IMG/VR virus record: IMGVR_UViG_3300014169_000016
Span: 1-32,810 of that record
Source of the DNA: a virus
Taxonomy: Duplodnaviria; Caudoviricetes
Strand: one strand, 5' to 3'
Length of the DNA stretch: 32,810 nt
Part shown: piece by piece, positions 642 to 17,160 of the stretch
Layout: each line of letters begins with the position of its first letter
Numbering within the stretch: the first letter of the stretch is position 1
Position numbers and translations under genes: made by a program
Notes under the pieces: model-generated
Seen by the model: the letters and a program-made list of their open reading frames with translations, nothing else
Told to the model about the DNA's origin: nothing
The model's database searches: none

Positions 642-852
642 CGAGTTAGGAATCTCTCCTGCAACTGTTCACCGCCATAAAGCGAGCATGTTTCAGAAGA
701 CCGGAGCATGGAATATTATCTCTCTTGTTCGCATGTTCTACGTTTTGCGGGATAAGGTCACTGGAGAAATTTACCCAACAATCGAGATTCGATGGAATGA
801 GAATTTTCGAACGCTGACGCCGAATTGTGAGAGGAATCAAAAAGCGCGGTAG
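562..852 (+). CDS. LuxR/GerE-family helix-turn-helix protein (N-terminal part of a probable LuxR-HNH fusion)
   Basis: LTTAERRVLDQVSKGKASKAIADELGISPATVHRHKASMFQKTG; RBS AAGGAG upstream. Confidence 0.85.
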   Translation: MKVALTTAERRVLDQVSKGKASKAIADELGISPATVHRHKASMFQKTGAWNIISLVRMFYVLRDKVTGEIYPTIEIRWNENFRTLTPNCERNQKAR

Positions 853-1026
853 AAGTTAAATCGTGCCGTCGATAGCGGAAGGGGCGTGCGCCCTGAAGTT
901 TGTTCGAAATGCGGGGAAGTCTGCATTCCTGAAGGCCATCATCCGGATTATGAAAAGCCCCTCGAAGTCATCTGGCTGTGCATGGAGTGTCACATCGAGC
1001 ATCACAGGATTCACGGCTTCAACTGA
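853..1026 (+). pseudogene. HNH-like Cys/His domain in frame behind a TAG stop
   Basis: Same frame as 562..852: KLNRAVDSGRGVRPEVCSKCGEVCIPEGHHPDYEKPLEVIWLCMECHIEHH, with the phage CxxC...HHxDYxKPLxVxWLCxxCH motif; ends TGA 1024-1026. Confidence 0.7.
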
Positions 1027-1027
1027 C

Positions 1028-2358
1028 CCGTGGTGAGCGCAAGCCCCGCACTTCAGGGCGGGGTAAGCGAACCGTAGAACGTTAGGAAAGGAGAGCAGAG
1101 CAGATGGAGCGCAGGCAAGCATTCAAATTTGAATTGATGCCAAATGGCGAACAACAGCGCATGATGCGTCGCTTCGCTGGCAGTGTGCGCTATATCTACA
1201 ACCACGCTCTCGCTCTGCAAAAGGAAATGTACGAAACCACGGCACGCTCCCACACTCGCTATCAACTGGACAAGCTGCTCACCCTGTGGAAGCAAGAGAC
1301 ACCGTGGCTCTCGGAGACACCAGCGCACTCCTTGCAGCAAGCATTGGTGGACTTGGACAAAGCGTATCAGAACTTCTTCAAGAAGCGTGCTCAGTTCCCT
1401 AAGTTCAAGAAGAAGGGGCAGCGCACTTCATATCGTGAGTCAGACCCGAAGACCATCACCCTAGACCAAGCGAACAGTCACATCCGTTTGCCAAAGATTG
1501 GCTGGGTACGCTATCGCAACAGCCGTGAAGTTCTCGGAGCAATCAAGAACGTCACTGTGAGCGAGTCGGCTGGCAAGTGGTACGTCAGCATCAGCACGCT
1601 GCGAGTTGTAGAGCAGCCCGTTCATCCTTCTTCATCAATCGTAGGCATCGACATGGGCGTCAAGCAGTTCGCCACGCTATCGGATGGCGAAGTCATCGAC
1701 CCAGCAAACGTTGGGAAGAAGTACCAGAAGCGTATGCGCTTGTTGCAGCGTCGTTTGAGTAGGAAGCAAAAATTTAGTCAGAACTGGAAGAAGGCGAAAG
1801 CGGCAGTAGCCAAGTTGCATCGCAAGATTGCGGCTACTCGCTCGGACTTCATCCACAAAGTAACAAGCACGATTAGCAAAAACCACGCCGTCGTGTGCAT
1901 CGAAGATTTACAAGTGAAGAATATGTCTGCATCAGCAGCGGGAACCATCGAGAAGAAGGGGAAGAATGTTGCGGCGAAGTCTGGTCTCAACAAGTCTATC
2001 CTCGACCAATCGTGGTTCGAGACACGTAGGCAGTTGGAATACAAGCAGCACTGGCTGGGCGGGGAAGTAATCGCAGTACCGCCGCAGCATACAAGCCAGC
2101 GTTGCCCCGAGTGTCAGCATGTGTCGCCAGACAACCGCAAGACGCAATCGAAGTTTGTTTGCATGTCGTGCGGGTTCGCAGCGAACGCAGACTTTGTTGG
2201 AGCAGTAAACATTTTAGCGGCAGGACATGCCGTCTTAGCCTGTAGAGATACTTCGCTTGCTATTGGGGCGTTGGCTCAGGAACCCACCGAGGGCATCGTA
2301 TGCGAAAGCGTATAGAGCCTGTAGGAATCCCCCGCATTTATGCGGGGGAGGATGTCAA
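1028..2358 (+). mobile_element. non-autonomous IS200/IS605-family element (tnpB only, IS1341-like)
   Basis: Left-end hairpin CCCCGC-acttcagg-GCGGGG preceded by CAAG (1040-1043); right-end hairpin GAAT-CCCCCGC-atttat-GCGGGGG ending GATGTCAA at 2358; TGAC at 1024-1027 fits IS608-type guide/cleavage-site pairing; no tnpA. Confidence 0.9.
1104..2315 (+). CDS. tnpB: RNA-guided endonuclease TnpB
   Basis: N-terminal OrfB HTH; RuvC motifs GIDMG, CIEDL and NADFVGAVNI all intact; Zn finger CPEC...CMSC. Confidence 0.97.
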   Translation: MERRQAFKFELMPNGEQQRMMRRFAGSVRYIYNHALALQKEMYETTARSHTRYQLDKLLTLWKQETPWLSETPAHSLQQALVDLDKAYQNFFKKRAQFPKFKKKGQRTSYRESDPKTITLDQANSHIRLPKIGWVRYRNSREVLGAIKNVTVSESAGKWYVSISTLRVVEQPVHPSSSIVGIDMGVKQFATLSDGEVIDPANVGKKYQKRMRLLQRRLSRKQKFSQNWKKAKAAVAKLHRKIAATRSDFIHKVTSTISKNHAVVCIEDLQVKNMSASAAGTIEKKGKNVAAKSGLNKSILDQSWFETRRQLEYKQHWLGGEVIAVPPQHTSQRCPECQHVSPDNRKTQSKFVCMSCGFAANADFVGAVNILAAGHAVLACRDTSLAIGALAQEPTEGIVCESV

Positions 2359-2374
2359 CTACATAGTTTACGTG
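2217..2374 (+). ncRNA. TnpB omega-RNA (reRNA): scaffold 2217-2358 plus guide from flanking DNA
   Basis: Overlaps the tnpB 3' end and runs to the right end; 5' boundary inferred from alignment to the second copy; guide length approximate. Confidence 0.8.
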
Positions 2375-2376
2375 AA

Positions 2377-2405
2377 TTGCGATATCCCTTTTTGCACACT
2401 ATAAA
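2377..2405 (+). promoter_or_regulatory. sigma70-like promoter
   Basis: TTGCGA-17 bp-TATAAA. Confidence 0.5.
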
Positions 2406-2524
2406 CAGAATCATGTTCCAACTCCTTGAAACACCCTGAAGGCCCTGGGGCGACTGACTCGCACTCGGCCGCCCCACTTCAAAGGAGGAGGCAGCACAAA
2501 TCCAAGCGAAAGGCTTGGTCCCCA

Positions 2525-2968
2525 ATGCCCTCAACGTTCGTGTCCGTAAATTCAGTAGTCGAACCACAGGAAATAGGCCCAGAAGGATTACTGCTTTACG
2601 GATTCCGAGGAGAAGCATTCCACCAGTTGACAGGGCCGGGAGTCTACATCGCGCAATGCGGAACAGGCGATGACATTGAATTTCTGTATATCGGATCGGC
2701 CAAAAACCTACATCAAAGAGGCGGGACTCGCCTCGTTAGCCTGTTCGCAACCTTCGGGTGAGGTAAGCCCGTCGTGTCAGGAACCCACCGAAGGTATCCC
2801 TGCTTAGCAGGTGCGCCAGTAGGAATCCCCTCCCTTCAGGGAGGGGAGGATGTCAAGATCGCACTATGCAAGAGCGAAAAGCACGCCAGGGATGTGGAAT
2901 CGGCCCTGATTCGTGAATTTCAGCCCATTTTGAATGTAACTGGTACCCGAAGAGTGAATGGCGAATAG
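2525..2968 (+). pseudogene. GIY-YIG endonuclease disrupted by an omega-RNA insert
   Basis: N-half GVYIAQ...FLYIGSAKNLHQR; C-half IALCKSEKHARDVESALIREFQPILN in the same frame; insert 2718-2856 brings a TGA at 2759-2761. Confidence 0.8.
2718..2872 (+). ncRNA. orphan TnpB omega-RNA / IS right-end remnant: scaffold 2718-2856 plus guide
   Basis: Shares TTAGCCTGT, CAGGAACCCACCGA and GTAGGAATCCCC...GGGGAGGATGTCAA with 2217-2358, with compensatory changes in the stems. Confidence 0.85.
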
Positions 2969-3212
2969 CGTCTGCGTATTACATCCGTGGGAAGCAGTAG
3001 ACCTCGAAAAGAATGGGCTTCCCCCCTCCTGTCGTAATCACAAGCATGTTAAGAAAATCGAAGCTATGGAGATGACAGCACGAGGCGACAACCAGCCGCA
3101 ATCGAAGTCTGCCCGTTGGATTGGTCCCGGGATGATCTGCTTGGTCGCTCAGGCAACATGGAGTCCTCGGCAGAGCGGTTGCGCAGGCCCGCTTGTCCTG
3201 CAAATGTCATGA
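2958..3212 (+). CDS. hypothetical protein (Cys/His-containing)
   Basis: 84-aa ORF overlapping the GIY-YIG 3' end. Confidence 0.6.
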   Translation: MANSVCVLHPWEAVDLEKNGLPPSCRNHKHVKKIEAMEMTARGDNQPQSKSARWIGPGMICLVAQATWSPRQSGCAGPLVLQMS

Positions 3213-3282
3213 CTGGTGAAAAGAGACGAAGAGAGCTTCCGGCGTCTCCGAAGGCTCCCGCTGTGCGTTTGGAGTTGGCCTG

Positions 3283-3408
3283 ATGTTTGACCCTGAAGCA
3301 AGCCCCCCTCCTTTCTGGCACAAGTCGTTTGCTGTAATTCTTGCAGCAGGAGTACTGGGAGCCATTGGCTACGTTTTGCATGGAATGTGGAAGGCATTGG
3401 GGCTGTAA
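3283..3408 (+). CDS. small single-pass membrane protein (41 aa)
   Basis: MFDPEASPPPFWHKSFAVILAAGVLGAIGYVLHGMWKALGL; GGAG at 3271; stop abuts the terS ATG. Confidence 0.6.
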   Translation: MFDPEASPPPFWHKSFAVILAAGVLGAIGYVLHGMWKALGL

Positions 3409-3762
3409 ATGGACGCTGTTTCTAAGGCACAGGCTGGTAACAAGCAAGAATCTAGCCGAATTGACCGCGTAAAGGGTCACAGATGGCAAAAAGGCCAATC
3501 TGGCAATCCTTCTGGCCGTCCGAAGAAGCTCCAGATCACCAAGATTTACGAGAAGATTCTACGTAGTGGCGTGAATCGCAAGGAGATAGAGGCGTCCATC
3601 AAGAAGATCGTTACGGATGGACGTATGGCTTCCGTGCTGATGATCCGGGAAATGGCGGAGCGCACGGAAGGCAAGGTCGCGGACATCGTAGATTTGAACG
3701 TTTCGGGCAAAATTACACTAGAACAGGCTCTGGAAGCTCGCAAAAAGGCCGCTAAGGAATGA
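3409..3762 (+). CDS. terS: probable terminase small subunit (DUF5681-like)
   Basis: WQKGQSGNPSGRPKK motif; ATGA overlap with terL. Confidence 0.8.
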   Translation: MDAVSKAQAGNKQESSRIDRVKGHRWQKGQSGNPSGRPKKLQITKIYEKILRSGVNRKEIEASIKKIVTDGRMASVLMIREMAERTEGKVADIVDLNVSGKITLEQALEARKKAAKE

Positions 3763-5207
3763 GCGCGACTGCGGTAAGCCCGGAAGTCATGCTCATGGAG
3801 CTGGCCGCTGATTGCAGCAAAGACCCGCTAGGATTTGCGCGCGGTTTTTGGCTCAATTCTGAGCCGCGCAAGTGGCAAACGGAGATTCTGGAGTATGTAG
3901 GGCAGTGGCTGTCGAATCCTGAGACGCGCTATCAACCCTGCAAAGTGGCCGTGAGCTCCGGTCATGGTATCGGCAAGTCGGCATTCATGGGGATGTTCCT
4001 CCATTGGGCGATGAGCACGACGGCGGGATGTAAGGCGGTAGTTACGGCGGGCACGGGGACGCAGCTTGCGACGAAAACGGTCCCCGAGGTATCCAAGTGG
4101 TTCCGGTCCAGCCTGGGAGCTTCCTGGTTTGATGTGCGGGCCACAAGCATTCGAGCATTGGATTCAAGTATGCCCGAATCGTGGCGCACAGACTTCGTAA
4201 CGTGGAGCGATCACAACACAGAAGCATTCGCCGGTCTGCATAATGAGGGCCGGCGCATTGTCCTGATTTTCGATGAAGCCTCAGCGATCGCAGACAAGGT
4301 TTGGGAAGTGGCGGAAGGCGCACTGACCGACGAGGGTACGGAGATTATTTGGCTGGCGTTCGGCAACCCAACACAGAATACGGGCCGGTTTCGTGAGTGT
4401 TTCGGTCGTTTTAAGCATCGTTGGAAGACGTTCCAGATCGACTCCCGCACCGTCGAAGGCACCAACAAAGAACAAATCGACAAATGGATAGTAGACTACG
4501 GTGAGGATTCAGACTTCGTACGTGTACGCGTCCGTGGCGAGTTCCCGAGGGCTGGATCAGCCCAGTTCATTCCCTCTGACGTGGTTGCCGCCTGTCGCAA
4601 GCATCGCGCTGAGGGTTACGAGGCTTTGCCCAAGGTCTTGTCGGTCGATGTCGCACGTTTCGGAGATGATCAGACTGTCTTTCAGCTCCGGCAAGGGCGC
4701 TATTCCGCGATTCTAGGGAAATACCGTGGCAAAGATACTCAATGGACAGCCGCGCAAACCATCAAGTTCAAGGAAGAGTGCCAGCCAGATGCGGTGGTGA
4801 TTGACGCCGATGGGATCGGCGCCGGCGTAGTCGATACGCTCAAGAATCTGCGACATAAAGACATCTACGAGTTTCACGGCGGGCAGTCGCCAGATGACCC
4901 GAACGCGTATTACAATAAGCGAGCGGAAGTTTGGGGACTAATGCGAGCCTGGCTGGTTGCTGGCGCTGAGATTTCAGATGATCCCGAGCTAGAAACTGAC
5001 TTAACTGCGCCAGAATACGGCTTCTCCAGTAAGCAGCAAATCCAGCTTGAGCGCAAAGAAGATATGAAGAAGCGGGGGCTATCTTCGCCGGATTGCGGCG
5101 ATGCATTGGCAATGACCTTCGCGGTGAAGATTGCGCCAAAGGCGCGAGTGCCACAGGTGAATCGACCGACGTATCCAGGGCAGGGAGGCGATTCATGGAT
5201 GGCGTAA
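3759..5207 (+). CDS. terL: terminase large subunit
   Basis: Walker A SGHGIGKS, Walker B LIFDEAS, coupling motif FGNPT, nuclease motif SVDVARFGDD, C-terminal SPDCGDAL. Confidence 0.95.
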   Translation: MSATAVSPEVMLMELAADCSKDPLGFARGFWLNSEPRKWQTEILEYVGQWLSNPETRYQPCKVAVSSGHGIGKSAFMGMFLHWAMSTTAGCKAVVTAGTGTQLATKTVPEVSKWFRSSLGASWFDVRATSIRALDSSMPESWRTDFVTWSDHNTEAFAGLHNEGRRIVLIFDEASAIADKVWEVAEGALTDEGTEIIWLAFGNPTQNTGRFRECFGRFKHRWKTFQIDSRTVEGTNKEQIDKWIVDYGEDSDFVRVRVRGEFPRAGSAQFIPSDVVAACRKHRAEGYEALPKVLSVDVARFGDDQTVFQLRQGRYSAILGKYRGKDTQWTAAQTIKFKEECQPDAVVIDADGIGAGVVDTLKNLRHKDIYEFHGGQSPDDPNAYYNKRAEVWGLMRAWLVAGAEISDDPELETDLTAPEYGFSSKQQIQLERKEDMKKRGLSSPDCGDALAMTFAVKIAPKARVPQVNRPTYPGQGGDSWMA

Positions 5208-5216
5208 GGAGAATTA

Positions 5217-5465
5217 ATGAATAACGAACCAGCGGTAATGAGATCAGCGAAAGCAGCTCCGAAGGCGCCGAAAGTTCTGGAGGAAATTCGCCTGAAGCGC
5301 GGGATGGACGGAGGAGTGATTGCAACCCATCACTACGAAGGCTATGAGCATGCGCCCCAGCCGCACAACGTGGAAGCGAGCTTGCCGGCAGTCGCCGCCC
5401 ATCTTGGTGAGCACATGGGACTCGAAGGCGGCGAGAAGATAGAAAGCCCGAAGGATCAGGATTAG
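5217..5465 (+). CDS. hypothetical protein
   Basis: RBS AAGGAG; 82 aa; sits in the operon. Confidence 0.75.
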   Translation: MNNEPAVMRSAKAAPKAPKVLEEIRLKRGMDGGVIATHHYEGYEHAPQPHNVEASLPAVAAHLGEHMGLEGGEKIESPKDQD

Positions 5466-5468
5466 GCC

Positions 5469-5684
5469 GTGCCAGTCGAGCATTTCAAATCTGCAGAAGG
5501 CTATCGCAAGAACATGGCATATCGGCATATTCACGGCATCCCATTCACGGCCTCAAAAGTCGTGGTTGCTGGCAAATCCCATGAAGTGAAGCATTCGAAT
5601 AGCCCTGCCCGCAAAAAGATTGACACGAAGCAGCGCAAGAAAGTCGGCATGAAGCTATCGGACGTGATGCATGGAGCGCGATGA
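5469..5684 (+). CDS. small basic hypothetical protein
   Basis: 71 aa; GTG start; tightly packed with neighbours. Confidence 0.7.
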   Translation: MPVEHFKSAEGYRKNMAYRHIHGIPFTASKVVVAGKSHEVKHSNSPARKKIDTKQRKKVGMKLSDVMHGAR

Positions 5685-5883
5685 GGAAGACAAACTCAAT
5701 CACAAAGCAGTCGGATACGAGCACCCCTCTGACCATAGCGATGATCGATGCGGTCGCTGTGCCCATTTTGTTGGAAGCATTCCGCCGCGATGCGAAGCGG
5801 TTAAGTCACCCATTCTGGCGGAAGATTGGTGTAAGCGGTTCTCGCCAAAGAAAAGCATGAGTCTCGTGGAGGTTATGAAGTGA
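5671..5883 (+). CDS. HiPIP-like (high-potential iron-sulfur) protein
   Basis: VGY...CGRCAHF...CEAV...I...WCKRF four-Cys pattern. Confidence 0.7.
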   Translation: MERDEEDKLNHKAVGYEHPSDHSDDRCGRCAHFVGSIPPRCEAVKSPILAEDWCKRFSPKKSMSLVEVMK

Positions 5884-6101
5884 ATTACGAGCTGCGTTCC
5901 CTGAAAGAATTTCAGCAAGCCGTTCAGCAAGCCCCGATGCAAGAGCGCGTGGCCGCAATGGCTCCGTTCATCCGAAGCAATGCCCACTTGCGCAGGATCA
6001 TCAAGAAAATCCCGATCAAACAGCGCGAAGCGGTCTACAACGCGCTGAAGGCGTACTTGAGGTTTACCCCGCAATCGTTTGCGATGCTCAAACCCCGATG
6101 A
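5880..6101 (+). CDS. hypothetical protein
   Basis: GGAGG RBS; 4-nt overlaps with genes on both sides. Confidence 0.7.
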   Translation: MNYELRSLKEFQQAVQQAPMQERVAAMAPFIRSNAHLRRIIKKIPIKQREAVYNALKAYLRFTPQSFAMLKPR

Positions 6102-6595
6102 ATCTACAAGGCTGGCAACCCAGAAACGACAGAGTAATCATCGAACGGCTGGACATGCAGCCTTCGAGGATCATCACGCTGACGGATGTTCCGAAGGGAT
6201 TGAAGGGCCGTGTTATTGCCGCAGGCCCCGGCAAGTGGATACCGGGGACATGGTGGAAGATCGGCCCGAACGATTTCTGCCCCGACCACGGCGATCCCAC
6301 TGATTGCGGTTGCGAGTATATGTGGATACCCGGCCATCGCGAAGAACATCCCTACAAACCAGGAATGCTCGTATTGTTCAATTCCAAATGGGATGACTTC
6401 AGAAACGCGGACTTCGAACGCGAGAAGCCCGTTGGCATTGTGGAGAATCTGCACCTCGTCCAAGTAGCCGACATTTTCTGCATCCTTGGGCGTGACGTGA
6501 AAGCGGCTTATTCGCTCGAAAAGAAAGCTAAAGACATTGTACCGACGCCCGAACAGATCGTCGCCCATTCTCAGCCCGCAATAAATGCCCGTTAA
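6098..6595 (+). CDS. GroES-like co-chaperonin
   Basis: QPRNDRVIIER...GRVIAAGPG...KPGMLVLF...VADIFCIL. Confidence 0.8.
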   Translation: MNLQGWQPRNDRVIIERLDMQPSRIITLTDVPKGLKGRVIAAGPGKWIPGTWWKIGPNDFCPDHGDPTDCGCEYMWIPGHREEHPYKPGMLVLFNSKWDDFRNADFEREKPVGIVENLHLVQVADIFCILGRDVKAAYSLEKKAKDIVPTPEQIVAHSQPAINAR

Positions 6596-8771
6596 AAGCT
6601 CCGAATCCCAAGAGTCAGAACAGCAGCAAGGCGCTAAGTCCGAAAAGGTCAGGAAATTCCTTGCTTTGGCCCATGCGCGGTTCAAAAGTTCGGCCGATGC
6701 CGAATCGCGTGTCCGTCAAGAAGCCCTTGATGACATGGAGTTCAGCATCGGCAACCAGTGGCCCGACGACATCTACCAGCAGCGCACCACCGAAGGCAAG
6801 CCATGCATCACCATGAACCGGCTGCCGCAGACGATCCGGTATGTCACGAACGAACAGAGACAGCAGCGGCCCGCGGCACAAATCAATCCTGTTGGGAGCG
6901 GCGCATCCGTCGATCGCGCGCAAATCCGCGAGGGCATCATTCGGCACATCGAGGTCAATTCCGAAGCTGACATTGCCGACGACACGGCGTTTGATTCAAT
7001 GGTGCGATGCGGTTTTGGGTATCAGCGAATAGTCACGGACTATGCCGCAGAAGTGGGCGACGAGCAGGAGCTGTTCATTCGTTGGGTGCGGAACAGTTTC
7101 ACTGTTTACGATGACCCAACTGCGCAACTCCCCGACAAGTCAGACCGCAAGTTCTGTTTCTTCATCCAGGACATGCCCGCGGAAGAGTTCAAGCAGGAAT
7201 ATCCAAATGCCGCAATGGCAGGGCTGCGCGACTTTACCAGCCTTGGCGATGCTTCGATGGAATGGGCAAACAGCGAGAAGCAGACAATCCGCATTGCTGA
7301 ATATTTCTTTCTCGAAAAGTCCAAGGATTCCCGCAGACCAAAAGTGAAATGGGCGATGATCTCCGCGCTAGACATTCTGGACGGCAACGATGAAGCGACG
7401 GATGGCCGATACTGGCCGGGAGAAGATGCCAGCAGGTACATCCCACTCGTAAAGGTCGTAGGCGACGATCTGGACGTAAACGGGAAACAGCACCAGGCGG
7501 GCCTCGTGCGGCACCTGAAGTCGCCGATGAAGCAATACAACGCGATGACTAGCGCGATGACGCAAAGCGCAATGCTGGCTCCGGTAGCGCCGTGGATAGC
7601 AGAAACCCGGCAGATTGAAGGCTACGAAGAGGACTGGCGGCTATCAAATCGTCGGGCCACGGCTGTTTTGCGGTATCACGCCGTGAGCGAGCGCGATACT
7701 CCGGTTCCGGCGCCTCAAAGAGTCAGCTCGGAACCTCCCATTCAAGCGTTTGGAGTACTGCTGGCCCGAGCGGAGATGGACTTACAAGCCTGCGCGGGCG
7801 TCTATAACCCCGCTTTGGGGAAAGAATCGTCCTCGGACCAATCTGGCAAGGCGATTAATAGCCTTCAGCAAAGGTCTGACGTAAACACGCTCAATTTCAG
7901 CGACAACCAAGCGCGGTCTATACGTTTCAGGACGCGGATCCTGCTCGATTGCATCCCGAAGGTCTATGACACGCACAGAGTCATGCGGATTATCAACCCT
8001 GACGGCACGGTGCGGCACGTTGTCACGCACAATGGCGCCGATCAGGCAGAATTTGCGAAGGAGTTAGCCCAGCAGCAGGAAATCAAGGAAATTTTTGATT
8101 TGGGTATCGGAACATACGATTGCACGGTGTCCGTTGGGCCTTCCTACCAAACGAAGCGCCAGCAGGCGGCTGATACCCAGCTTCAGCTTTTGAAGCTCTT
8201 GCCTCCGCAAGTCGCACAGATTCTCATGGATTTGGTCATTCGCAACATGGACATCCCGCAAGCCAATGAGATGGCCGACCGGATCAAAAAACAGTTACCG
8301 CCAGAACTTCTGGACGAGGGGCAAAGCGATCCGAAGCAGCAAATCATTCAGCTTCAGGCGCAACTGAAACAGATCGCCTTGCAAAACCAGCAGCTTCAGG
8401 CTGTAAACAGCGACATGCTGGGCGTCATCACAAAGAAGACCATCGAGCAGAAGGGCAAGCTCGATCTCGAACATCTGAAGATTCTGGGGCAAGTTCTCGT
8501 CGCGGAAATCAATACCAAATCTCAGGACCAGCAGCAACGGCTCGAAATGTTCAACGATATGCTGGCCCAGCTTGGCGAGCATGGGCACGAAGCCGCAAGC
8601 GCTGCGCAGGTTCATGCCCAAGAGATGCAGAAGCAGCAGCAGGCTGCCGCGAATCAATCGGCGCTCACGTCCCAACAGGCAGGTCATCAGTCGGCTCAAT
8701 CTTCGCAAGATGCGAGCCAGGCTTTAGTCGCCCAGCAAGCAGCGGCTCCGCAGCCCGGAGCGGGAGCATAA
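6585..8771 (+). CDS. portal protein, P22-like
   Basis: 728 aa; DDMEF..GNQW, PCITMNRL, SGKAI, YDCTVSVGPSYQTKRQ; Gln-rich coiled-coil C-terminus. Confidence 0.92.
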   Translation: MPVKSSESQESEQQQGAKSEKVRKFLALAHARFKSSADAESRVRQEALDDMEFSIGNQWPDDIYQQRTTEGKPCITMNRLPQTIRYVTNEQRQQRPAAQINPVGSGASVDRAQIREGIIRHIEVNSEADIADDTAFDSMVRCGFGYQRIVTDYAAEVGDEQELFIRWVRNSFTVYDDPTAQLPDKSDRKFCFFIQDMPAEEFKQEYPNAAMAGLRDFTSLGDASMEWANSEKQTIRIAEYFFLEKSKDSRRPKVKWAMISALDILDGNDEATDGRYWPGEDASRYIPLVKVVGDDLDVNGKQHQAGLVRHLKSPMKQYNAMTSAMTQSAMLAPVAPWIAETRQIEGYEEDWRLSNRRATAVLRYHAVSERDTPVPAPQRVSSEPPIQAFGVLLARAEMDLQACAGVYNPALGKESSSDQSGKAINSLQQRSDVNTLNFSDNQARSIRFRTRILLDCIPKVYDTHRVMRIINPDGTVRHVVTHNGADQAEFAKELAQQQEIKEIFDLGIGTYDCTVSVGPSYQTKRQQAADTQLQLLKLLPPQVAQILMDLVIRNMDIPQANEMADRIKKQLPPELLDEGQSDPKQQIIQLQAQLKQIALQNQQLQAVNSDMLGVITKKTIEQKGKLDLEHLKILGQVLVAEINTKSQDQQQRLEMFNDMLAQLGEHGHEAASAAQVHAQEMQKQQQAAANQSALTSQQAGHQSAQSSQDASQALVAQQAAAPQPGAGA

Positions 8772-9047
8772 ATGTATTACAAAGAGTTGAACGCAGCCGG
8801 AACCTATCTCATTAAAGGCGCGCAAGGTTATTTGCAGGGAATCACGGTGAATCTTCCCGGAAGCGGCACGCTCCAGATTGCCGACAATAGCGCGGGTTCC
8901 GCAGCAGCACCATTTATCGCGGGCGCAACGGCTTTCGCTATCCCTCCAGCCGGCAGCTACCTCGACTACGATTGTAGTTTTTCAAATGGGCTAACGATTG
9001 TGGTTGGTGGAACAGGCCCGCTATCTATCACTGTGGAGTGGAGCTGA
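8772..9047 (+). CDS. small beta-rich hypothetical (possible virion) protein
   Basis: 91 aa immediately after the portal gene. Confidence 0.75.
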   Translation: MYYKELNAAGTYLIKGAQGYLQGITVNLPGSGTLQIADNSAGSAAAPFIAGATAFAIPPAGSYLDYDCSFSNGLTIVVGGTGPLSITVEWS

Positions 9048-9155
9048 TGCCGCGCCCAGTGGTAATTCGCAGGAAGCAGCGTAGCGGGAAGAACAATTGA
9101 TCTTTGCATCGGTCCAACTAATGGCCGAGATAAATCCAAACGCGGAGGAAATCGC

Positions 9156-10100
9156 GTGGCAATCACGGTAGAGAGCACCACAGCACCACAATACGAACTG
9201 AACCATGCTGTTTCGGAGGATCGCAAAAACCCCGAAGCGCTGGATAAGTTCAAAGAGCAAGAAGAAAAAGCCACTCCCGGCGCGAGAACTGACGCGGAAA
9301 AGACGCCCGTTTCGGGAACGGACGACCACAAGGAACCAGAAGGCAAAAAAGAAGCAGAAGACGATCTTCCAGTTGGTGCGAGAAAGCGCATCGACAAGCT
9401 GACAGCGCGCGCGAAGACTGCCGAAGAAACAGTTGCGGAACTCCGAACGCGCCTCGAAGCCCTCGAAAAAGGCAAAGAGCAGCCAAAGACGGACACAAAG
9501 CAGCCTCAAGCCGCAACGGAACGTCCCAAGCGAGCAGATTTTCTCGCACAGGGCAAATCCGATGAGGAATATGAGGACGCTCTGTTTGCATGGCGAGCCG
9601 TTGAAGACGAACGGAAAGCCCTGACTGCCGAAATCGAGGATCGTACCAAGGAAATCGTTTCGACGCACAACGAACGGATGACCGCGGCCAAGGAAAAGTA
9701 CCATGACTTTGAGGATAAGCTCAAAACCACAACTATTCCCTGGGATGCGAAGAATCCTCAGGATGTGCAGGCGTCGAAAGCGTTCCAGGTTGCGATTCAC
9801 GAGTGCGACAATGGGCCGGATGTGCTCTATGAAATTGCGCAGAAGCCGGAACTCGCGGCGCAATTCGCAGGGCTCTCGCCGGCGCGTACGCAACTCCTGA
9901 TCGGGCGCATTTCCGCTTCTCTTTTGCCTTCTGAAACTCCTGAAAAGAAAGAACCGCCCAAGACGAGGGTAGCAGCACCGCCCAAGCCTGTTGGTGGTTC
10001 GGCAAACACTTCCGCCTATGACCCTTACAAAGAACAGCCCAAGAACCATAAGCAGTACATGGCTTGGCGCAAGACGCAAGGGCAAGGGCGCGCGAACTAA
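9156..10100 (+). CDS. scaffolding protein
   Basis: Charged helical protein between portal and coat; RKRIDKLTAR, GPDVLYEIA, PPKPVGG; GGAGG RBS. Confidence 0.85.
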   Translation: MAITVESTTAPQYELNHAVSEDRKNPEALDKFKEQEEKATPGARTDAEKTPVSGTDDHKEPEGKKEAEDDLPVGARKRIDKLTARAKTAEETVAELRTRLEALEKGKEQPKTDTKQPQAATERPKRADFLAQGKSDEEYEDALFAWRAVEDERKALTAEIEDRTKEIVSTHNERMTAAKEKYHDFEDKLKTTTIPWDAKNPQDVQASKAFQVAIHECDNGPDVLYEIAQKPELAAQFAGLSPARTQLLIGRISASLLPSETPEKKEPPKTRVAAPPKPVGGSANTSAYDPYKEQPKNHKQYMAWRKTQGQGRAN

Positions 10101-10164
10101 GCCATGAAACAATGCTGCAATTATGCATTGAAGTGGCTTCCACTACTAAAGGAGTGGTAGCTAT

Positions 10165-11394
10165 ATAGCGAACCAACTGTTAACGATTAGTATGATAACA
10201 GAGGAAGCGCTTGAAGTGTTGTCGAACGAATGCACTTTCACGCCGCTTGTGAACCGCGAATATGATTCCAAGTTCGCAATCGAGGGCGCGAAAATCGGCA
10301 CCGTTCTCAACATCAGAAAGCCTCCTCGTTACATCGGGCGCGTCGGTCAAGCCTTGCAGCTTGAAGATGCTACCGAAACCAGCGTGCCGTTGACGCTGAA
10401 CACTCAGCGCGGCGTAGATATCGCGTTCACATCGCAGGACATGGCGTTGTCGATCAGCGATTTCTCGCGGCGTTTCCTGCGACCCGGCCTTATCAAGGTT
10501 GCCAACCTCGTAGATTTCGACGGCTTGGGGCAATACCTCAACGTCTTCGATGAGATTGGCACCCCCGGCACCGTTCCCAACTCGGCTCTGACCTACCTTC
10601 AGGTGGGGCAGCGGCTGAACGAGGAAGCGGCGCCATTGGCTGATCGCAACGTCGTTATTTCGCCCGGGATGAACGCCACAATCGTCAATGCCTTGACCGG
10701 CTTTTTCAATCCCCAGCGGACGATTTCCGAGCAATACCGCAAGGGAATGATGAGCCGGGACACCCTTGGTTTCGACTGGTATATGGATCAGAACGTTCGG
10801 ACCCAGACAGTCGGGCTACAGGGCGGCACACCGATCGTCAACGCAGCCAACCAGACCGGAAATATCATCACGTCTTCGGGCTGGACGGCTTCGACGGTTG
10901 TTTTGAACCTTGGCGACGTCATCAGCTTCGGAACCACCTCCAGCGGCGCTCTCGCCGTCAATCCGCAGAACCTGCAATCCACTGGCGCGCTCCGGCAGTT
11001 TGTTGTGACCTCTGCGGTTACTTCGAACGGCTCCGGCGTGGCGTCGATTCCGATTTCAGGACCAGGCGGCTTGGGTGTCGTGACGGCTGGAGCTTTCCAG
11101 ACCGTTACACAGGCTCCGCCAAACAATGCCACTATCAACGTCCAAGGCACAACGGGCCTTACTTCTCCCCGCGGTCTCGGCTTCTGCAAAGACGCTTTTG
11201 CCTTTGCGTGCGCTGACTTGCCGTTGTGGGAAGGGGTTCACAAGGCTTATCGCGCCAAAGACCCGGAAATCGGAATGTCAATTCGCATCATCTGCGCATA
11301 TGACATCAACCTTGACCGCGCCCCTTGGCGGTTGGACCTGCTCTATGGCTGGCAGACTCAGTATCCCGAATTGGCCTGCCGTGTGGCATCGTGA
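10165..11394 (+). CDS. major capsid protein, P22 gp5-like (inferred ATA start at 10165; first ATG at 10192)
   Basis: (I)ANQLLTISMITEEALEVL, NREYDSKF, KIGTVLNIRKP, RLDLLYGW, PELACR. Confidence 0.93.
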   Translation: MANQLLTISMITEEALEVLSNECTFTPLVNREYDSKFAIEGAKIGTVLNIRKPPRYIGRVGQALQLEDATETSVPLTLNTQRGVDIAFTSQDMALSISDFSRRFLRPGLIKVANLVDFDGLGQYLNVFDEIGTPGTVPNSALTYLQVGQRLNEEAAPLADRNVVISPGMNATIVNALTGFFNPQRTISEQYRKGMMSRDTLGFDWYMDQNVRTQTVGLQGGTPIVNAANQTGNIITSSGWTASTVVLNLGDVISFGTTSSGALAVNPQNLQSTGALRQFVVTSAVTSNGSGVASIPISGPGGLGVVTAGAFQTVTQAPPNNATINVQGTTGLTSPRGLGFCKDAFAFACADLPLWEGVHKAYRAKDPEIGMSIRIICAYDINLDRAPWRLDLLYGWQTQYPELACRVAS

Positions 11395-11411
11395 TGGAGA
11401 AAACAACGAAC

Positions 11412-12254
11412 ATGAACATCAAAAAAATGCTGTTCTCTCTTCTCGCAGCGCTGATTTGCGTGGGATCCATTTCCGCGCAGACCTCGCTGACCCAGACAAC
11501 CCTTGCGGCGGCTATTCAGTGCGGCCCCTCTTGCGCCAATTCCGGCGTAGGTTCGGGCACCAGCTACCAAACCACCGTTAACCTCACCTCCGCAACCGGC
11601 GTCAGCGTGGCCGTCAATGGCCAGCCTGTAACGTTCATCTACGTAGACCAGGAATTGATGGGCGTGATGACGCTTTTGACCGGACAGACCACCGTCTACA
11701 GCGTGCTGCGCGCTCAGCAAGGGACGAAGCTTTCGGCTCACGTCTCCGGCGCAATGGTGCTTATTGAGACCGTAAGCCCGCAGTTTGGCGGCTACCAAGG
11801 TTCAGGCGGCTTCCAGCAGACTGACCCTCCGAACGGTGGAGCTTGCACCGCAACAAACACCAACGCTACCCCGTGGATCAACATCATCACAGGCTATCAG
11901 TGGTTGTGCTCGTCCATCACCGGCACATGGGTTTCTGGTTTCAACAATCCATTCGCCGGCGACTTCTCGGGCCAGACTGCAACCGTAGCGGCTGCAACCG
12001 GGGCCGTTCTGCCTACCGGAGCGCTATTTGTCATCAGCGGCGCGGGAGCAATCAGCGGCTTCACCATTCCTGTTGGCTGCAACGCAACGGCTGTAGGGGC
12101 TTGCTCCTTCACCGTAATCGCAGCGGCTGGCTCGACGTGGACATGGACCGCTGCGGGCAACATTATGACCGCCGGAACTGGTACGGCTGGGCACACTTTC
12201 GTGTTCACTTGGTCGGCCAGCTTGCAGAAGTTCGTTCCGTCGTCCCTGTCGTAA
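11412..12254 (+). CDS. putative head decoration/virion protein with signal peptide
   Basis: Directly after coat; MNIKKMLFSLLAALICVGSISA|Q; Thr/Gly/Ala-rich beta protein; alternative ATG at 11394. Confidence 0.75.
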   Translation: MNIKKMLFSLLAALICVGSISAQTSLTQTTLAAAIQCGPSCANSGVGSGTSYQTTVNLTSATGVSVAVNGQPVTFIYVDQELMGVMTLLTGQTTVYSVLRAQQGTKLSAHVSGAMVLIETVSPQFGGYQGSGGFQQTDPPNGGACTATNTNATPWINIITGYQWLCSSITGTWVSGFNNPFAGDFSGQTATVAAATGAVLPTGALFVISGAGAISGFTIPVGCNATAVGACSFTVIAAAGSTWTWTAAGNIMTAGTGTAGHTFVFTWSASLQKFVPSSLS

Positions 12255-12269
12255 AACAATTCAACCCTG

Positions 12270-12293
12270 GGGCCTCGCTCGTTCAGGGGGCCC
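12270..12293 (+). terminator. GC-rich hairpin after the coat/decoration genes
   Basis: GGGCCTC...GGGGCCC stem; no clear U tract. Confidence 0.35.
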
Positions 12294-12312
12294 ACACACA
12301 TAGGAGCTGCGA

Positions 12313-12459
12313 ATGAGTTCGTCAGGAGAAGTACCCGGCGCCAACGTTCCGCACGATTACGTGCCCGGCAAGGGCTACGTGCCTCGCACGCCCAGCGAAG
12401 AGTTGCAAGCGGAACTTGAACCGCTGCCGGTCGTTGAAGATGAAAAGGAAGGTGAGTAA
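12313..12459 (+). CDS. small acidic hypothetical protein (48 aa)
   Basis: AGGAG RBS; MSSSGEVPGANVPHDYVPGKGYVPRTPSEELQ...; stop abuts the next ATG. Confidence 0.7.
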   Translation: MSSSGEVPGANVPHDYVPGKGYVPRTPSEELQAELEPLPVVEDEKEGE

Positions 12460-12927
12460 ATGGCTCAAGAATTGATCCCACGTCTCGGTCATAAGGACGT
12501 GTTTACCTATGACGTTATCCCTGAAGAGGATGACGTAAACAAGATCCCCATTCCCAAACAGGCGCGCAACGCGATGGGGCCCCATATCTACAACAAAGAG
12601 CGCAATGATCGCGGCCTCGTGATCGGCTATCAAAAGCTCAACGTGACGGCATCGGACCTCGAAGCGCCGCCAAAAGAAAACACTTTTCCCCCATTTCGAA
12701 CGGTTTACCCCAAGGTTCTGCGTCGCGAAGCCACGAAAGCGGAAATCAAACAGCGCGAAGCTGATTTGACGCTCGAAATGTGGCTCGACCGGGACTTCGA
12801 CCTCATCAAGGAAACGGGGCTTAACCAGCGCAAACGCGCATCCGACTGGCGGAAGTGGATAGATAGGCCCGTCGAAACTACGGTGAAAAGCCGCGAGGAA
12901 GAAGAAGAGATTCTTACGGCTTCCTAA
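12460..12927 (+). CDS. hypothetical protein
   Basis: 155 aa; TAATG coupling to the next gene. Confidence 0.75.
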   Translation: MAQELIPRLGHKDVFTYDVIPEEDDVNKIPIPKQARNAMGPHIYNKERNDRGLVIGYQKLNVTASDLEAPPKENTFPPFRTVYPKVLRREATKAEIKQREADLTLEMWLDRDFDLIKETGLNQRKRASDWRKWIDRPVETTVKSREEEEEILTAS

Positions 12928-13754
12928 TGCCCGGTCCCGTTCTACCGCCAACAAACGCAACGACAACGTTTCCCGGCCTCTTCCCGACCGTCACCGATTT
13001 ACTGAAACGGTCATTGAGGATTATTGGGGTGCTGTCGGGAGGAAGTCAGGGGTCTGAACTATCCGCCGATGACTTCCTCGATGCGATGTTTTCCGGGAAT
13101 CAGTTGCTTGATTCGTGGAACACAGAGCGGCTGATGGTGTGGGGCATTCTGCGGAATGTTTACACGCTGCAATCTGGAGTGCAGACGTACCAACTGGGGC
13201 CGCAGCAGACCGGCACCGCAGCAACGACACTCGACCAGAACCGCTATTCGAAGATCGAACGCTACAGCATCATCAGCTTGACGAACGCCGCACAGCCCCT
13301 GGAATTGCCCATCGAATCCTTGACATACATTGGCTGGCAGGCCATCCCGGTAAAGAACATCCAATCGGCACTTTCGACCAAGGTTTATGACGATCGCGCA
13401 TTCCCGCAGCGGAACCTGAATTTCTATCCTGTGCCAAACACCAACATTCAAGCGGTTGTCTATCCTTGGACTCAGGTGACGCAATTTACAGGATTGACCC
13501 AGCAGCTCGCGTTTCCGCCCGGCTACCTCCGCGCTTTAGCCTACAACATTGCGATGGAGTTGTTCCCTGAATGGCAAGGGAATCCCGCATTGCTGCCGGT
13601 GGTGCAGAAAATCGCTGTCGAGTCGAAAGCGGCTATCAAGTCGCTGAACGTTGTATCGCTCGAAATGGCCTGCGATTCGATGGTTGTCGGTGGTGTGAAG
13701 GGGATGATTTACAACTGGCTGACTGATGAACCGATTAGTAAAGGGTACGTTTAA
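12927..13754 (+). CDS. head-tail adaptor, P22 gp4-like
   Basis: DLLKRSLRIIGV...N.LLDSWN, FYPVP, FPPGYLRALAYNIAMEL; position in the module. Confidence 0.75.
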   Translation: MPGPVLPPTNATTTFPGLFPTVTDLLKRSLRIIGVLSGGSQGSELSADDFLDAMFSGNQLLDSWNTERLMVWGILRNVYTLQSGVQTYQLGPQQTGTAATTLDQNRYSKIERYSIISLTNAAQPLELPIESLTYIGWQAIPVKNIQSALSTKVYDDRAFPQRNLNFYPVPNTNIQAVVYPWTQVTQFTGLTQQLAFPPGYLRALAYNIAMELFPEWQGNPALLPVVQKIAVESKAAIKSLNVVSLEMACDSMVVGGVKGMIYNWLTDEPISKGYV

Positions 13755-13781
13755 GTAACTAGATAGCACGGAGGTGCTTCG

Positions 13782-15347
13782 ATTGCAAGGTTTGGCTTCG
13801 TAGGACCATCCTACACGCTCGCGAACGTTACAAGTGATTGTCAGAGATGCTTGAATTTCTACCCCGAAGCCGACGAATCTGGCATGGGTAAGTCGGCAAT
13901 GGTTCTGAATCCCCGCCCTGGTCTCTCTCTGTTCGCACAAGTCGGCGGAGCAGCGCAAGTTCGCGGCGAGTGGAGCATCAATGCGCGCATGTTCACCGTG
14001 ATTGATGCGACTCTCTATGAGGTTCTTTCAAGCGGCGCGCTAAATGCGATCGGAAGCGTCGGAAACGACGGGAATCTTGTATCAATGGTCGCGAGTCCGC
14101 AACAGCTACTCGTAGCCAGCGTCGGGAATGTGTGGCTGTATCAACTCCAAACGGAAAGCGGCTACGCAAATGCAACCATCGCCCCGACTGGAACGTTGAC
14201 CGCGGGGCAGTTTATCCAAATCCCCGCTTCCACGTTTCCCGGCCCGGTTACGCAAGTTGGATTGTGCGACAGCTTTTTCATCGCGCTCATTGCCTCGACG
14301 GAGCAATTCTTTGTCACGACACAACTAGACGCTACTGATTGGACCGACGAAGGCTCGAAAATCATTTCCACATTCCCTGACAACGTGGTTTCTATGGTTA
14401 TCGACCACCGGGAAATCTGGCTGCTTGGCGCGAAGTCTTCGGAGCCGCAGTATGACTCTGGAAATATCTTCCCATTCGACTCCGTGCCTGGTGGATTTAT
14501 TGAGCAAGGCTGCGCAGCGCAATTTGCCACGGTCCAGCTCGACAACTCGATTTTCTGGATTGGCGCACGGAATGACCAAGGCGGTTTGGTTGGCTGGCGC
14601 GCGAACGGCTATACTCCGCAGCGCATTTCGAATCACGCGGTAGAGAATTCCTGGAACAGTTACCCGACTTGCGCGGACGCGCGGGCATTCTCTTATTCGC
14701 TGGGCGGACATTCCTTCTGGCACATTAACTTCCCCTCGGCACAAGCGACTTGGGTCTATGACGTGGCAACGGGCCTCTGGCACGAACAGAGTTTCTACAA
14801 CACGAACACCGGAACTCACCAAGCAGCGCTCCCGCAATGTCACACCTACCAGTTTGGGAAGCATCTCGTCGGCGACCGGCAAAGCGGGATGATTTACCAG
14901 ATGCAGCTCCCGGTCGTGCAAGGCAATGGCTGGAATTTCGTTACCGACAATGGCGCACTCATCCATCGCATCCGCAAAGCTCCGCACATTTCGACTGAGC
15001 AAGAGTGGATTTATCACAACATGATTCAGATTGACCTCGAAGTAGGAGTCGGGCCGCAACCCCCGCTATATAACGGCGACGGATCGGCGCGAGGGCCGAA
15101 ACTCACGCTCAGTTGGTCTGACGATGGCGGCAAGAATTTCCCACTGGCCTTCGATCTCGATTGCGGACAAGCAGGGAATTACAAGCGGCGCGTGATGAAG
15201 TGGCGGTTGGGGCGTTCACGTGATCGCGTTTATCAGATTCAGTGCAGCGACCCTGTGCCCTGGAGAGTCACTGATGCCTATTTGCAGGCCAGTGGGATGC
15301 AGCGACCGCAAAAGCGCCTAGCGAAGCAATACTCGGAAGTGGCCTGA
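13782..15347 (+). CDS. tail hub / packaged-DNA stabilization protein, P22 gp10-like (inferred ATT start)
   Basis: (I)ARFGFVGPSY...NFYPE, TWVYDVATGLWHE, LSWSDDGG, WRLGRSRDRVY; GGAGGT 6 nt before ATT 13782. Confidence 0.88.
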   Translation: MARFGFVGPSYTLANVTSDCQRCLNFYPEADESGMGKSAMVLNPRPGLSLFAQVGGAAQVRGEWSINARMFTVIDATLYEVLSSGALNAIGSVGNDGNLVSMVASPQQLLVASVGNVWLYQLQTESGYANATIAPTGTLTAGQFIQIPASTFPGPVTQVGLCDSFFIALIASTEQFFVTTQLDATDWTDEGSKIISTFPDNVVSMVIDHREIWLLGAKSSEPQYDSGNIFPFDSVPGGFIEQGCAAQFATVQLDNSIFWIGARNDQGGLVGWRANGYTPQRISNHAVENSWNSYPTCADARAFSYSLGGHSFWHINFPSAQATWVYDVATGLWHEQSFYNTNTGTHQAALPQCHTYQFGKHLVGDRQSGMIYQMQLPVVQGNGWNFVTDNGALIHRIRKAPHISTEQEWIYHNMIQIDLEVGVGPQPPLYNGDGSARGPKLTLSWSDDGGKNFPLAFDLDCGQAGNYKRRVMKWRLGRSRDRVYQIQCSDPVPWRVTDAYLQASGMQRPQKRLAKQYSEVA

Positions 15348-15661
15348 TGGCGAACACCGATCTCAACTTCGCCCCTCCGCCTGTTAGAACACCTTTTTTC
15401 GATGCAGGTCCAGCGCAATCCGAGAGCGGCACACGTTTCGAGGATCGCGGCAAGCCGAAACCGCTTCCCAGGCAGCCTCACCGTGGCTGGATGCAATGGT
15501 TTCAAAGCGTCACCAACAAATTAACCGCTCCAATCGCAGTGGGAACACCGACAGCGAAGACGCCGGGCCAAATAGGCCAGCAAATGCATGATGCCAATTT
15601 CCTCTACACCTTCACGGTAGCGAATACATGGATGAAAACGCCATTTCAACCGCTCTCTTAG
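15347..15661 (+). CDS. hypothetical virion protein
   Basis: TGATG coupling; PPPVRTP...WMQWFQ motif typical of the gene following gp10-like genes. Confidence 0.7.
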   Translation: MANTDLNFAPPPVRTPFFDAGPAQSESGTRFEDRGKPKPLPRQPHRGWMQWFQSVTNKLTAPIAVGTPTAKTPGQIGQQMHDANFLYTFTVANTWMKTPFQPLS

Positions 15662-15858
15662 AGTTCTGCGATTTCGTCAGCGGGCATGTTGAGAAAGAAT
15701 TGGTTTTGCCCGAGACACTGATTAATGATCTCGATGTGGACTCGCTCGAATTTATCGAACTAGTGCAGGCCATCAGCGCGAAATACGGGCCAGTGCCCGA
15801 CGACAAAATCACGAAAGTATGCACCGTTCGCGACCTTTTCGATGCAATTCCAGCGTGA
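15628..15858 (+). CDS. acyl carrier protein-like
   Basis: 76 aa, acidic; DLDVDSLEFIELV phosphopantetheine-attachment motif; TVRDL C-terminal helix. Confidence 0.85.
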   Translation: MDENAISTALLEFCDFVSGHVEKELVLPETLINDLDVDSLEFIELVQAISAKYGPVPDDKITKVCTVRDLFDAIPA

Positions 15859-16297
15859 AACGCTAGATGACTGGCTGGTTGACTTAGAGCCCTTGATTCT
15901 CCCGCACTGGGAAGAACTGACGCTAGACAAAGATGTTTTCAGCGAACCTTATCCCGATGTTGAAAAGTTCCGCGATGTCCAGAATCAAGGAAAACTCCTT
16001 ATCGTCACCGCGCGCGACAACGGTGATCTTGTCGGCTATTGGGTGGGCGCCGTTCTCGGGCATTTGCATTATCCGAAAGCACCGCCTGTCTGCCTCACAG
16101 ACATGTACTTTTTGCATTCTGCCTACCGCAAAGGTCCGACGGGGATTCAATTGATAGAAGCCGCGATCCAAGAAGCAAAGAAAGCCGGCGCAGCCGATTT
16201 TCACATTTCCTGCAAGGTCCATGAAGATCACACGAAACTTTTTGAAGCCATGAAGTTCAAGAAAACGGATTACGTGTTTCGCAAGAGGCTCATCTAA
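15842..16297 (+). CDS. GNAT-family acyl/acetyltransferase
   Basis: ARDNGDLVGY, DMYFLHSAYRKGPTGIQLI, LFEAMKF. Confidence 0.85.
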   Translation: MQFQRETLDDWLVDLEPLILPHWEELTLDKDVFSEPYPDVEKFRDVQNQGKLLIVTARDNGDLVGYWVGAVLGHLHYPKAPPVCLTDMYFLHSAYRKGPTGIQLIEAAIQEAKKAGAADFHISCKVHEDHTKLFEAMKFKKTDYVFRKRLI

Positions 16298-16318
16298 TGC
16301 GGAAAGTAGGGTATTAAT

Positions 16319-17158
16319 ACGGGCATTGGAACAGGTTTGGGGATTGCTGGAATCGCAAGCGCGGGAATCGGCGCGGCCGGTTCGCTTGGTGCGGGTTCCG
16401 AACAAGCCGGAGCCGCGAAATCCGCTGAGCAGCTTCAGTATCAAGAGCAGCAACAGGCGCTTCAGTTCCAGGAACAAGAGTGGGAGCAGCAGCAACAAAA
16501 TGAAGCTCCTTATCTCCAAGCTGGCGGGAAAGCGATTGGGAACCTCTACAATCTTGCAAATGGCGGGCTGCCAGCATGGAGCGGTTCCTTTCAGGCGCCC
16601 ACGGCGCAGCAAGCCGAGCAGACCCCCGGCTATCAATTCCAGGTTCAACAGGGCGATCAGGCGCTCCAGAACTCTGCGGCGGCGCGCGGCGGTGTATTAT
16701 CGAGCGGCACGGCGAAGAATCTTGAGGCTTACAATCAGGGACTCGCTTCGACGGACTATCAGCAGGTTTTCAACAATTCCCTGACGCAGTACCAGCAAGC
16801 CTACAACGAATATCAGCAGAATCAATTGAATCAGTTCAACCGACTGGCATCCGTGGCGGGAGTGGGGCAAACGGCAGTTGGTCAAACGGGCCAACTCGGG
16901 CAGGCCGCATCGAACAACCTCGGAAATATCTTCCTGACCGGCGGAGCGCAGCAGGGACAAGATTTGCAATTCGGCGCAGCGGCGAATGCGAGCGGTTACG
17001 TTGGCGCAGCAAACGCCGCAGCCGGTGGATTGGGCAGCCTATCGGGCGCTTTGACGCTTCAGCAGATTCTTGCGCAGAATGGTCAGAATCCAGGGCAGGT
17101 TCCCAACTATGACCCCAACTACAACTATATGACGACTACAGGACCGACGCAGGAATAA
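16319..17158 (+). CDS. pilot / DNA-ejection protein (start uncertain: ATT 16313, ACG 16319 or TTG 16337)
   Basis: Gly/Ala-rich N-terminus; TPGYQFQVQQG, NSAAARGG..SSGT; Gln-rich helices. Confidence 0.8.
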   Translation, partial: TGIGTGLGIAGIASAGIGAAGSLGAGSEQAGAAKSAEQLQYQEQQQALQFQEQEWEQQQQNEAPYLQAGGKAIGNLYNLANGGLPAWSGSFQAPTAQQAEQTPGYQFQVQQGDQALQNSAAARGGVLSSGTAKNLEAYNQGLASTDYQQVFNNSLTQYQQAYNEYQQNQLNQFNRLASVAGVGQTAVGQTGQLGQAASNNLGNIFLTGGAQQGQDLQFGAAANASGYVGAANAAAGGLGSLSGALTLQQILAQNGQNPGQVPNYDPNYNYMTTTGPTQE

Positions 17159-17160
17159 CA

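Follow-up and report, generated by a model that had tools for sequence, protein, structure and literature searches.

The closest described counterparts of the locus reported here are the standalone omegaRNAs of OMEGA systems, which are evidently mobilized and have been shown to work in trans (Altae-Tran 2021, as reported in PMC10691335). PATE-like minimal IS200/IS605 elements, a second group, often encode omegaRNAs (10.1101/2023.03.14.532601). For ISDra2, the TAM of TnpB is described as identical to the TnpA target (PMC8612924), and TnpB can process the 5' end of its omegaRNA from longer transcripts (PMC10278001). The TAM table of PMC10787141 gives TGAC for ISAba30 TnpB and TGAT for ISTfu1 TnpB, as separate enzymes. 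On multicopy plasmids, TnpB is reported to act as a gene drive that cuts empty copies with its cognate guide (PMC11870625). The concept of a standalone, trans-acting omegaRNA is already published. The orphan scaffold characterized below is a well-resolved case of a known kind and a putative trans guide. Neither phage TnpB omegaRNAs lacking a left end nor the clustering of breakpoints was the subject of any paper that our literature search returned, which does not prove absence; the portion of 10.1101/2023.11.20.567912 available to us holds nothing on standalone omegaRNAs. A poorly targeted search on non-cognate omegaRNA cross-loading gave nothing relevant, which does not show absence from print.

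The window, meaning the whole stretch of DNA analysed, is a complete virus record of 32,810 nt. It carries P22-like portal and coat genes (a name taken from Pfam labels), and positions 3759–5207 are probably the large terminase gene, for which Pfam gives only a weak helicase match. Two IS605-derived elements occupy the interval that separates a pair of LuxR-type HTH genes from the probable terminase genes (Table 1). The nearest kin of both elements are in Acidobacteria MAGs, which is a hint, and only a hint, of an Acidobacteria host.

Table 1. Features of the two-element region, in window coordinates.
Feature	Positions	Strand	Basis
TGAC target motif, TnpA site and predicted TAM of element 1	1024..1027	+	empty allele joins TGAC to 2359
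Element 1 left end: 12 nt, DNA guide CAAG (1040–1043), hairpin	1028..1063	+	layout common to six Acidobacteria copies, all after TGAC
tnpB, 403 aa (TnpB1)	1104..2315	+	Pfam OrfB_IS605, HTH_OrfB_IS605, Cas12f1-like_TNB
omegaRNA scaffold and right end of element 1, overlapping tnpB tail, ending TCAA	2217..2358	+	alignment, fold
Guide 1, phage flank	2359..2374	+	follows TGAC in empty allele
GIY-YIG endonuclease gene, interrupted, 5' part	2531..2711	+	weak Pfam GIY-YIG match; start codon not fixed
Orphan: last 145 nt of second IS605 element	2712..2856	+	junctions from L001 and X2; 134/145 to L093
Guide 2, phage flank	2857..2872	+	TGAT precedes in empty allele
GIY-YIG gene, 3' part	2858..2968	+	weak Pfam GIY_YIG_2 match; 100% to L001

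Element 1 spans 1028–2358, directly 3' of TGAC. It is an IS200/IS605 element of the tnpB-only kind: it is inserted 3' of a tetranucleotide without target duplication, has subterminal hairpins with DNA guides and a TCAA right end, and contains no tnpA. We take this kind to be the IS1341 group. TnpB1 matches a TnpB in the PDB (E 5.6e-55), and its RuvC triad (D183, E267, D363) is intact. In layout, element 1 resembles ISDra2 and IS1341-type elements (left-end hairpin with a DNA guide, tnpB, overlapping omegaRNA, TCAA end); it is an uncharacterised member.

The second element consists of 6 nt of tnpB tail, a whole scaffold and a right end. That 2718–2856 is a diverged homologue of 2217–2358, as had been proposed from the letters of the window alone, was confirmed: 96/142 columns are identical (101/151 when the alignment starts at 2208 and 2709), and the local score is 55, whereas 2000 shuffles never exceeded 29. 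Two matches to the right-end pattern lie in the window, against none in any of 100 shuffles. Three stems named in the original prediction are present in the predicted folds of both copies (z −2.79 for the orphan, −1.71 for scaffold 1); in a family alignment of 17 sequences picked from the fetched loci, both window copies included, 12/21 predicted pairs are changed on both sides. No Rfam family reached its gathering threshold in the window. Both guide sequences are as first proposed, and self-targeting was rejected, since allowing as many as 2 mismatches revealed no further match to either 12-nt guide in the window. The orphan had been said to start right at its first hairpin; it does start near it, but at 2712, 6 nt ahead of the hairpin, and these 6 nt read as tnpB tail codons in one frame.

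The orphan can be set against the described systems on this anatomy. Like the standalone omegaRNAs, as far as PMC10691335 describes them, it is a complete scaffold without an effector gene of its own, its guide comes from its own new flank, and an effector locus lies in the same replicon; unlike them, it derives from another element and has another target motif. It shares with PATEs the lack of a protein gene and the retention of right end and omegaRNA. However, PATEs, as described in 10.1101/2023.03.14.532601, retain both ends, whereas the orphan has no left end and its flank is not intact (70 bp are lost), which places it outside the PATE-like elements. Nor do the two copies form an omegaRNA array or proto-CRISPR: they are two unrelated insertions 353 nt apart, and the window holds only two right ends.

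Empty alleles were obtained by fetching 80 loci via a terminase-like protein, only one of which (L001) matched the region at the DNA level. L001 differs from the window flanks at 0/353 and 5/8,348 positions (5 of 8,701 compared bases), lacks exactly 1028–2358, with TGAC joined to 2359, and at the second site carries 70 bp in place of 2712–2856, ending in TGAT before guide 2. An independent DNA run (X2) has the same two joints, skipping 1331 nt at site 1. A 151-nt element 1 contig (depth 2) was also recovered from X2; a single run thus contains filled as well as empty alleles. The empty state must be the ancestral one, because the 70 bp complete the GIY-YIG frame and align with an independent homologue (P0001); the frame is uninterrupted in L001, and P0001 matches it at E 1.9e-16. 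With both empty sites in hand, the origin, junctions and target motifs are fixed: there were two independent insertions, the second one-ended and accompanied by loss of flank.

These alleles bear on several points of the original prediction. Firstly, the relatives with uninterrupted loci that it anticipated exist, in that L001 and X2 carry both guide targets. Secondly, the target it foresaw for guide 2, TGAC followed by the guide, is nonexistent, since the empty allele has TGAT there. Thirdly, it described a clean retention of exactly the scaffold; the scaffold is indeed complete, but its surroundings are not, the GIY-YIG gene having lost 70 bp next to it. The replacement of 70 nt by 145 preserves the GIY-YIG frame, probably by chance, with a single TGA inside the scaffold; given this stop and the missing 70 bp, a working fusion is unlikely even though the frame is kept. 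No left end was found for the orphan, and the idea that one had been missed was rejected because 2359–2711 is identical to the empty allele (0/353 differences).

The alleles differ at one further place. A 147-bp HNH-like zinc-finger segment (window 845–991), behind a TAG stop, is absent from L001 and from the main X2 allele, and run X2 holds alleles with and without it. In its absence, the second LuxR-type frame continues to a stop overlapping the TGAC of element 1. Since the alleles differ by this segment as well, the region is dispensable.

A scan of genomes with the hairpin-1 pattern returned 12 loci, all in Acidobacteria. The orphan is 134/145 identical to one of them (L093) and 133/146 to another (L087), or 92%, versus 101/151 to scaffold 1. 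Both loci are full IS605 elements with divergent tnpA, their TnpBs show 57% (L093) and 56% (L087) identity to TnpB1, and the first codons of the orphan continue their TnpB tail. This identity and the continued tail make the orphan the 3' end of another element; because that end is L093-like and the corresponding TnpB is only 57% identical to the neighbouring one, the orphan probably represents what a deletion has left of a second insertion, namely its right end. A duplicated end of element 1 that diverged under selection would account for the shared orientation, the 500-bp distance and the conserved blocks in common, but is scarcely credible: it is refuted by the 92% identity to other elements against 67% to element 1, and divergence on that scale would have needed older phage alleles. 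Covariation of the copies, noted in the original prediction, must be read differently. It reflects old family divergence predating the phage, the orphan being 92% identical to the native scaffolds of other elements whereas the phage alleles differ at only 5 of 8,701 positions, and carries no information on selection since the orphan reached the phage.

We favour, with a probability of roughly 0.6, the reading that the orphan is the deletion-trimmed right end of a second IS605 insertion in the GIY-YIG gene, and a passenger unused by TnpB1 for cutting. A host TnpA would have inserted the full second element after TGAT, and a deletion would then have fused phage base 2711 with the element 6 nt ahead of hairpin 1, at a shared AC; no more than these 2 nt are common to the junction and L087-type sequence. 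Without a left end, the orphan could not be moved by TnpA. An origin as a cDNA copy of an RNA was rejected, as the right end lacks a foreign guide behind it and joins the phage directly, following a family-type tetramer. Two loci of the orphan's scaffold type, L286 (G152:C271) and L090, are likewise truncated, with 6 and 7 nt left ahead of hairpin 1, respectively; the L286 breakpoint is identical to that of the orphan, and L090 is a PATE-like element with nearly the same internal breakpoint.

The full-length parent was found neither at site 2 nor elsewhere in metagenome, viral and genome scans, which weighs against the favoured reading. For an allele with full-length element 2, the metagenome scan gave only the window itself and four chance matches of 19–20 nt, and the viral scan only L001 again. 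With blastn, the orphan had no match among annotated phages and only partial right-end matches among plasmids (25 records); the narrow form of the hairpin-1 pattern had no viral match, and genome samples at phylum, family and class level yielded no new parent.

Whether TnpB1 might use the orphan depends on target motif and scaffold class. Across the family, left-end guides and insertion motifs pair as TGAC/CAAG, TTAC/AAAG, TGAT/CAAA and TTAT/AAAA: CAAG with TGAC in element 1 and six copies, AAAG-type with TTAC in four, AAAA with TTAT in five, and CAAA with TGAT in L155, L159, L164 and L158. The exceptions are L140 and L149 (CAAA beside TTAT) and L182 (CAGG beside TTAC). This pairing makes TGAT a separate class, and N-terminal motifs of TnpB sort by target-motif class. 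R52 of TnpB1 aligns with ISDra2 Y52, which is reported to contact the last TAM base (PMC10097598); as Tyr is kept also in TTAC-class proteins, residue 52 alone is not decisive. Because its target motif mismatches the one predicted for TnpB1, the orphan is likely a passenger. TnpB1 is predicted to need TGAC and so would cut empty alleles at site 1 only.

Such cutting of empty site-1 alleles by TnpB1 and RNA 1 has a precedent on plasmids, and would likely benefit element 1; the precedent, as described in PMC11870625, differs in concerning plasmids and a cognate guide, not phages or orphan guides. Lying 350–500 bp from the site-1 cut, the remnant could be co-converted during repair and spread without a function of its own.

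Scaffold type follows the RuvC-containing C-terminal half of TnpB. In the TnpB of L088, identity to TnpB1 is 85/80/91% for residues 1–175 and 51–72% thereafter, and its C-half is 79–93% identical to L093. Six chimeric TnpBs (L086, L088, L089, L092, L095, L097) combine a TnpB1-like N-half of the TGAC class with an L093-like C-half and scaffold, which reads as natural swapping of the predicted TAM module. The orphan's parent is presumed to be another such swap. Relatives with a readable left end and the orphan's scaffold type are TTAC- or TGAC-class (0 TGAT-class), and neither the genome samples (201, 301 and 401 genomes) nor the viral scans contained a TGAT-class element with such a scaffold, a gap that speaks against the favoured reading.

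The original prediction was of a two-guide system, in which TnpB1 would process and load RNA 2 and cut the uninterrupted GIY-YIG allele of co-infecting relatives. If true, this would be a natural multi-guide nuclease cutting empty alleles of such relatives. Part of it stands: the guide 2 target is present in relatives, the orphan scaffold is whole, folds (z −2.79) and has core stems in common with scaffold 1, and standalone omegaRNAs are described as acting in trans with compatible effectors (PMC10691335). The remainder meets a TGAT motif where TGAC is predicted, and TAMs are said to show "relatively little degeneracy" (PMC10278001); moreover, the scaffolds are only 68% alike and tied to different lineages of the RuvC half. 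Predicted TAM and RNA fit both argue against use of the orphan by TnpB1, and we regard the two-guide system as distinctly unlikely. The orphan nevertheless offers a ready test of whether a non-cognate omegaRNA that is 68% identical can be loaded by a TnpB, and of how strictly the last TAM base is read.

An unlikely alternative that accommodates the motif is that the orphan works with a TGAT-class TnpB of its parent family in the host, which would cut empty alleles and give the orphan homing of its own. The insertion needed a TnpA not seen on the contig, so that a parent element was once present in some host; TGAT-class elements exist in the family (L155, L159, L164), modules recombine, and trans use of PATE-borne omegaRNAs has been proposed (10.1101/2023.03.14.532601). 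However, the genome samples and viral scans described above hold no TGAT-class element with the orphan scaffold type, and loss of the 70 bp removes the homology immediately left of the target.

Transcription bears on the deletion-trimmed passenger and on its alternatives. No sigma-70 promoter consensus was found in 900–3450 (shuffle mean 1.1), which counts against the two-guide system. In favour of that system, two contigs of an RNA run from another study (X3; 2430–2803 and 2774–3130) span the left and right junctions of the orphan, although they give no strand or ends, the library may include DNA, and phage coverage is patchy (25/30 bins of 3800–23700). The contig depth of 13 over 2430–2803 was not used to rank expression, and uncovered parts of RNA runs were taken as no evidence. 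Since TnpB can process the omegaRNA 5' end from longer transcripts, read-through would suffice in principle; the remnant may be transcribed in this way, and possibly even be bound by some TnpB. The same contigs argue against misassembly. That the orphan is an artefact collapsing a full element is very improbable, even though the scaffold is a repeat in run X1, touched by several other contigs, and a single DNA assembly has yielded the window allele. On the minus strand, hairpin 1 and a T-run (2718–2734) form a terminator-like site; 3 such sites were found, versus 2.6 expected by chance.

We surveyed truncation points in the family in two ways. The first survey, anchored on the right end, covered 140 distinct fetched sites and the two window copies; 63 sites were first set aside for short flanks, short-scaffold subfamilies were excluded, and the regex missed L266 and L286. 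No TnpB1-like gene lies upstream in 19/52 classifiable viral sites. Truncated lineages, grouped by hand, numbered 23, of which 10 begin between −20 and +5 nt relative to hairpin 1 (5/11 with a left end and 5/12 without). The other 7 of the 12 left-end-less lineages break elsewhere, which counts in favour of the passenger reading; minus the window, the left-end-less count is 4/11 (P 0.017 or 0.12, by null range). The second survey was anchored on hairpin 1, with no selection on upstream bases. Here, 6/12 truncated lineages retain ≤10 nt of upstream element (5/11 excluding the window), full-length and contig-edge copies being uncounted and boundaries being approximate where the empty allele is absent. 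With hand-grouped lineages, P is 4e-8 for 5/11 against a uniform null over 1100 nt, and 7e-4 for 5/8 against one over 100 nt.

Truncation at the foot of hairpin 1 therefore recurs in the family far above a uniform null. The clustering is real, and it is the best support for the original prediction and its two-guide system. It fits both selection for intact RNA and a hairpin deletion hotspot, and it concerns the family, not this very recent orphan copy. That truncated copies, whether or not they keep a left end, pile up within ~10 nt of hairpin 1 is the most useful clue to emerge here, pointing either to selection for intact trans-acting guides or to such a hotspot. A bolder reading, which we consider distinctly unlikely, is that phages recurrently gain guides from hairpin-1-trimmed foreign IS605 elements, and that a non-cognate TnpB, relaxed in its TAM and RNA specificity, would load these and become a multi-guide nuclease against empty alleles of co-infecting relatives, on the way to an array.

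A full element and tnpB-less copies also occur together on three further viral contigs (L127/L296, L182/L189, L303/L304), as a two-guide system would have it; in these, the orphan copy is 82–100% identical to its neighbour, unlike in the window. On one 5-kb viral contig (L303/L304), the full element is accompanied by a left-end-less scaffold that is 148/148 identical to its own and has a different guide; this copy may provide a genuine second guide, cognate to its neighbour, or be a product of assembly. One 166-kb viral contig (L182, L189–L191) holds a full tnpB element, two PATE-like minis and a partial scaffold within ~10 kb, all related.

Seven mini-elements that lack a nearby tnpB and whose scaffold has a variant 5' domain (L108, L149, L158, L261, L263, L276, L277) are possibly a separate mobile subfamily. 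In other phages, L141 and L205 (also L151) are left-end-less whole scaffolds with, by eye, a sigma-70-like TTGCAT-17-TATAAT box whose end lies ~9 nt upstream; judged by this sequence, L141 and L205 appear better candidates than the orphan for a dedicated standalone omegaRNA gene.
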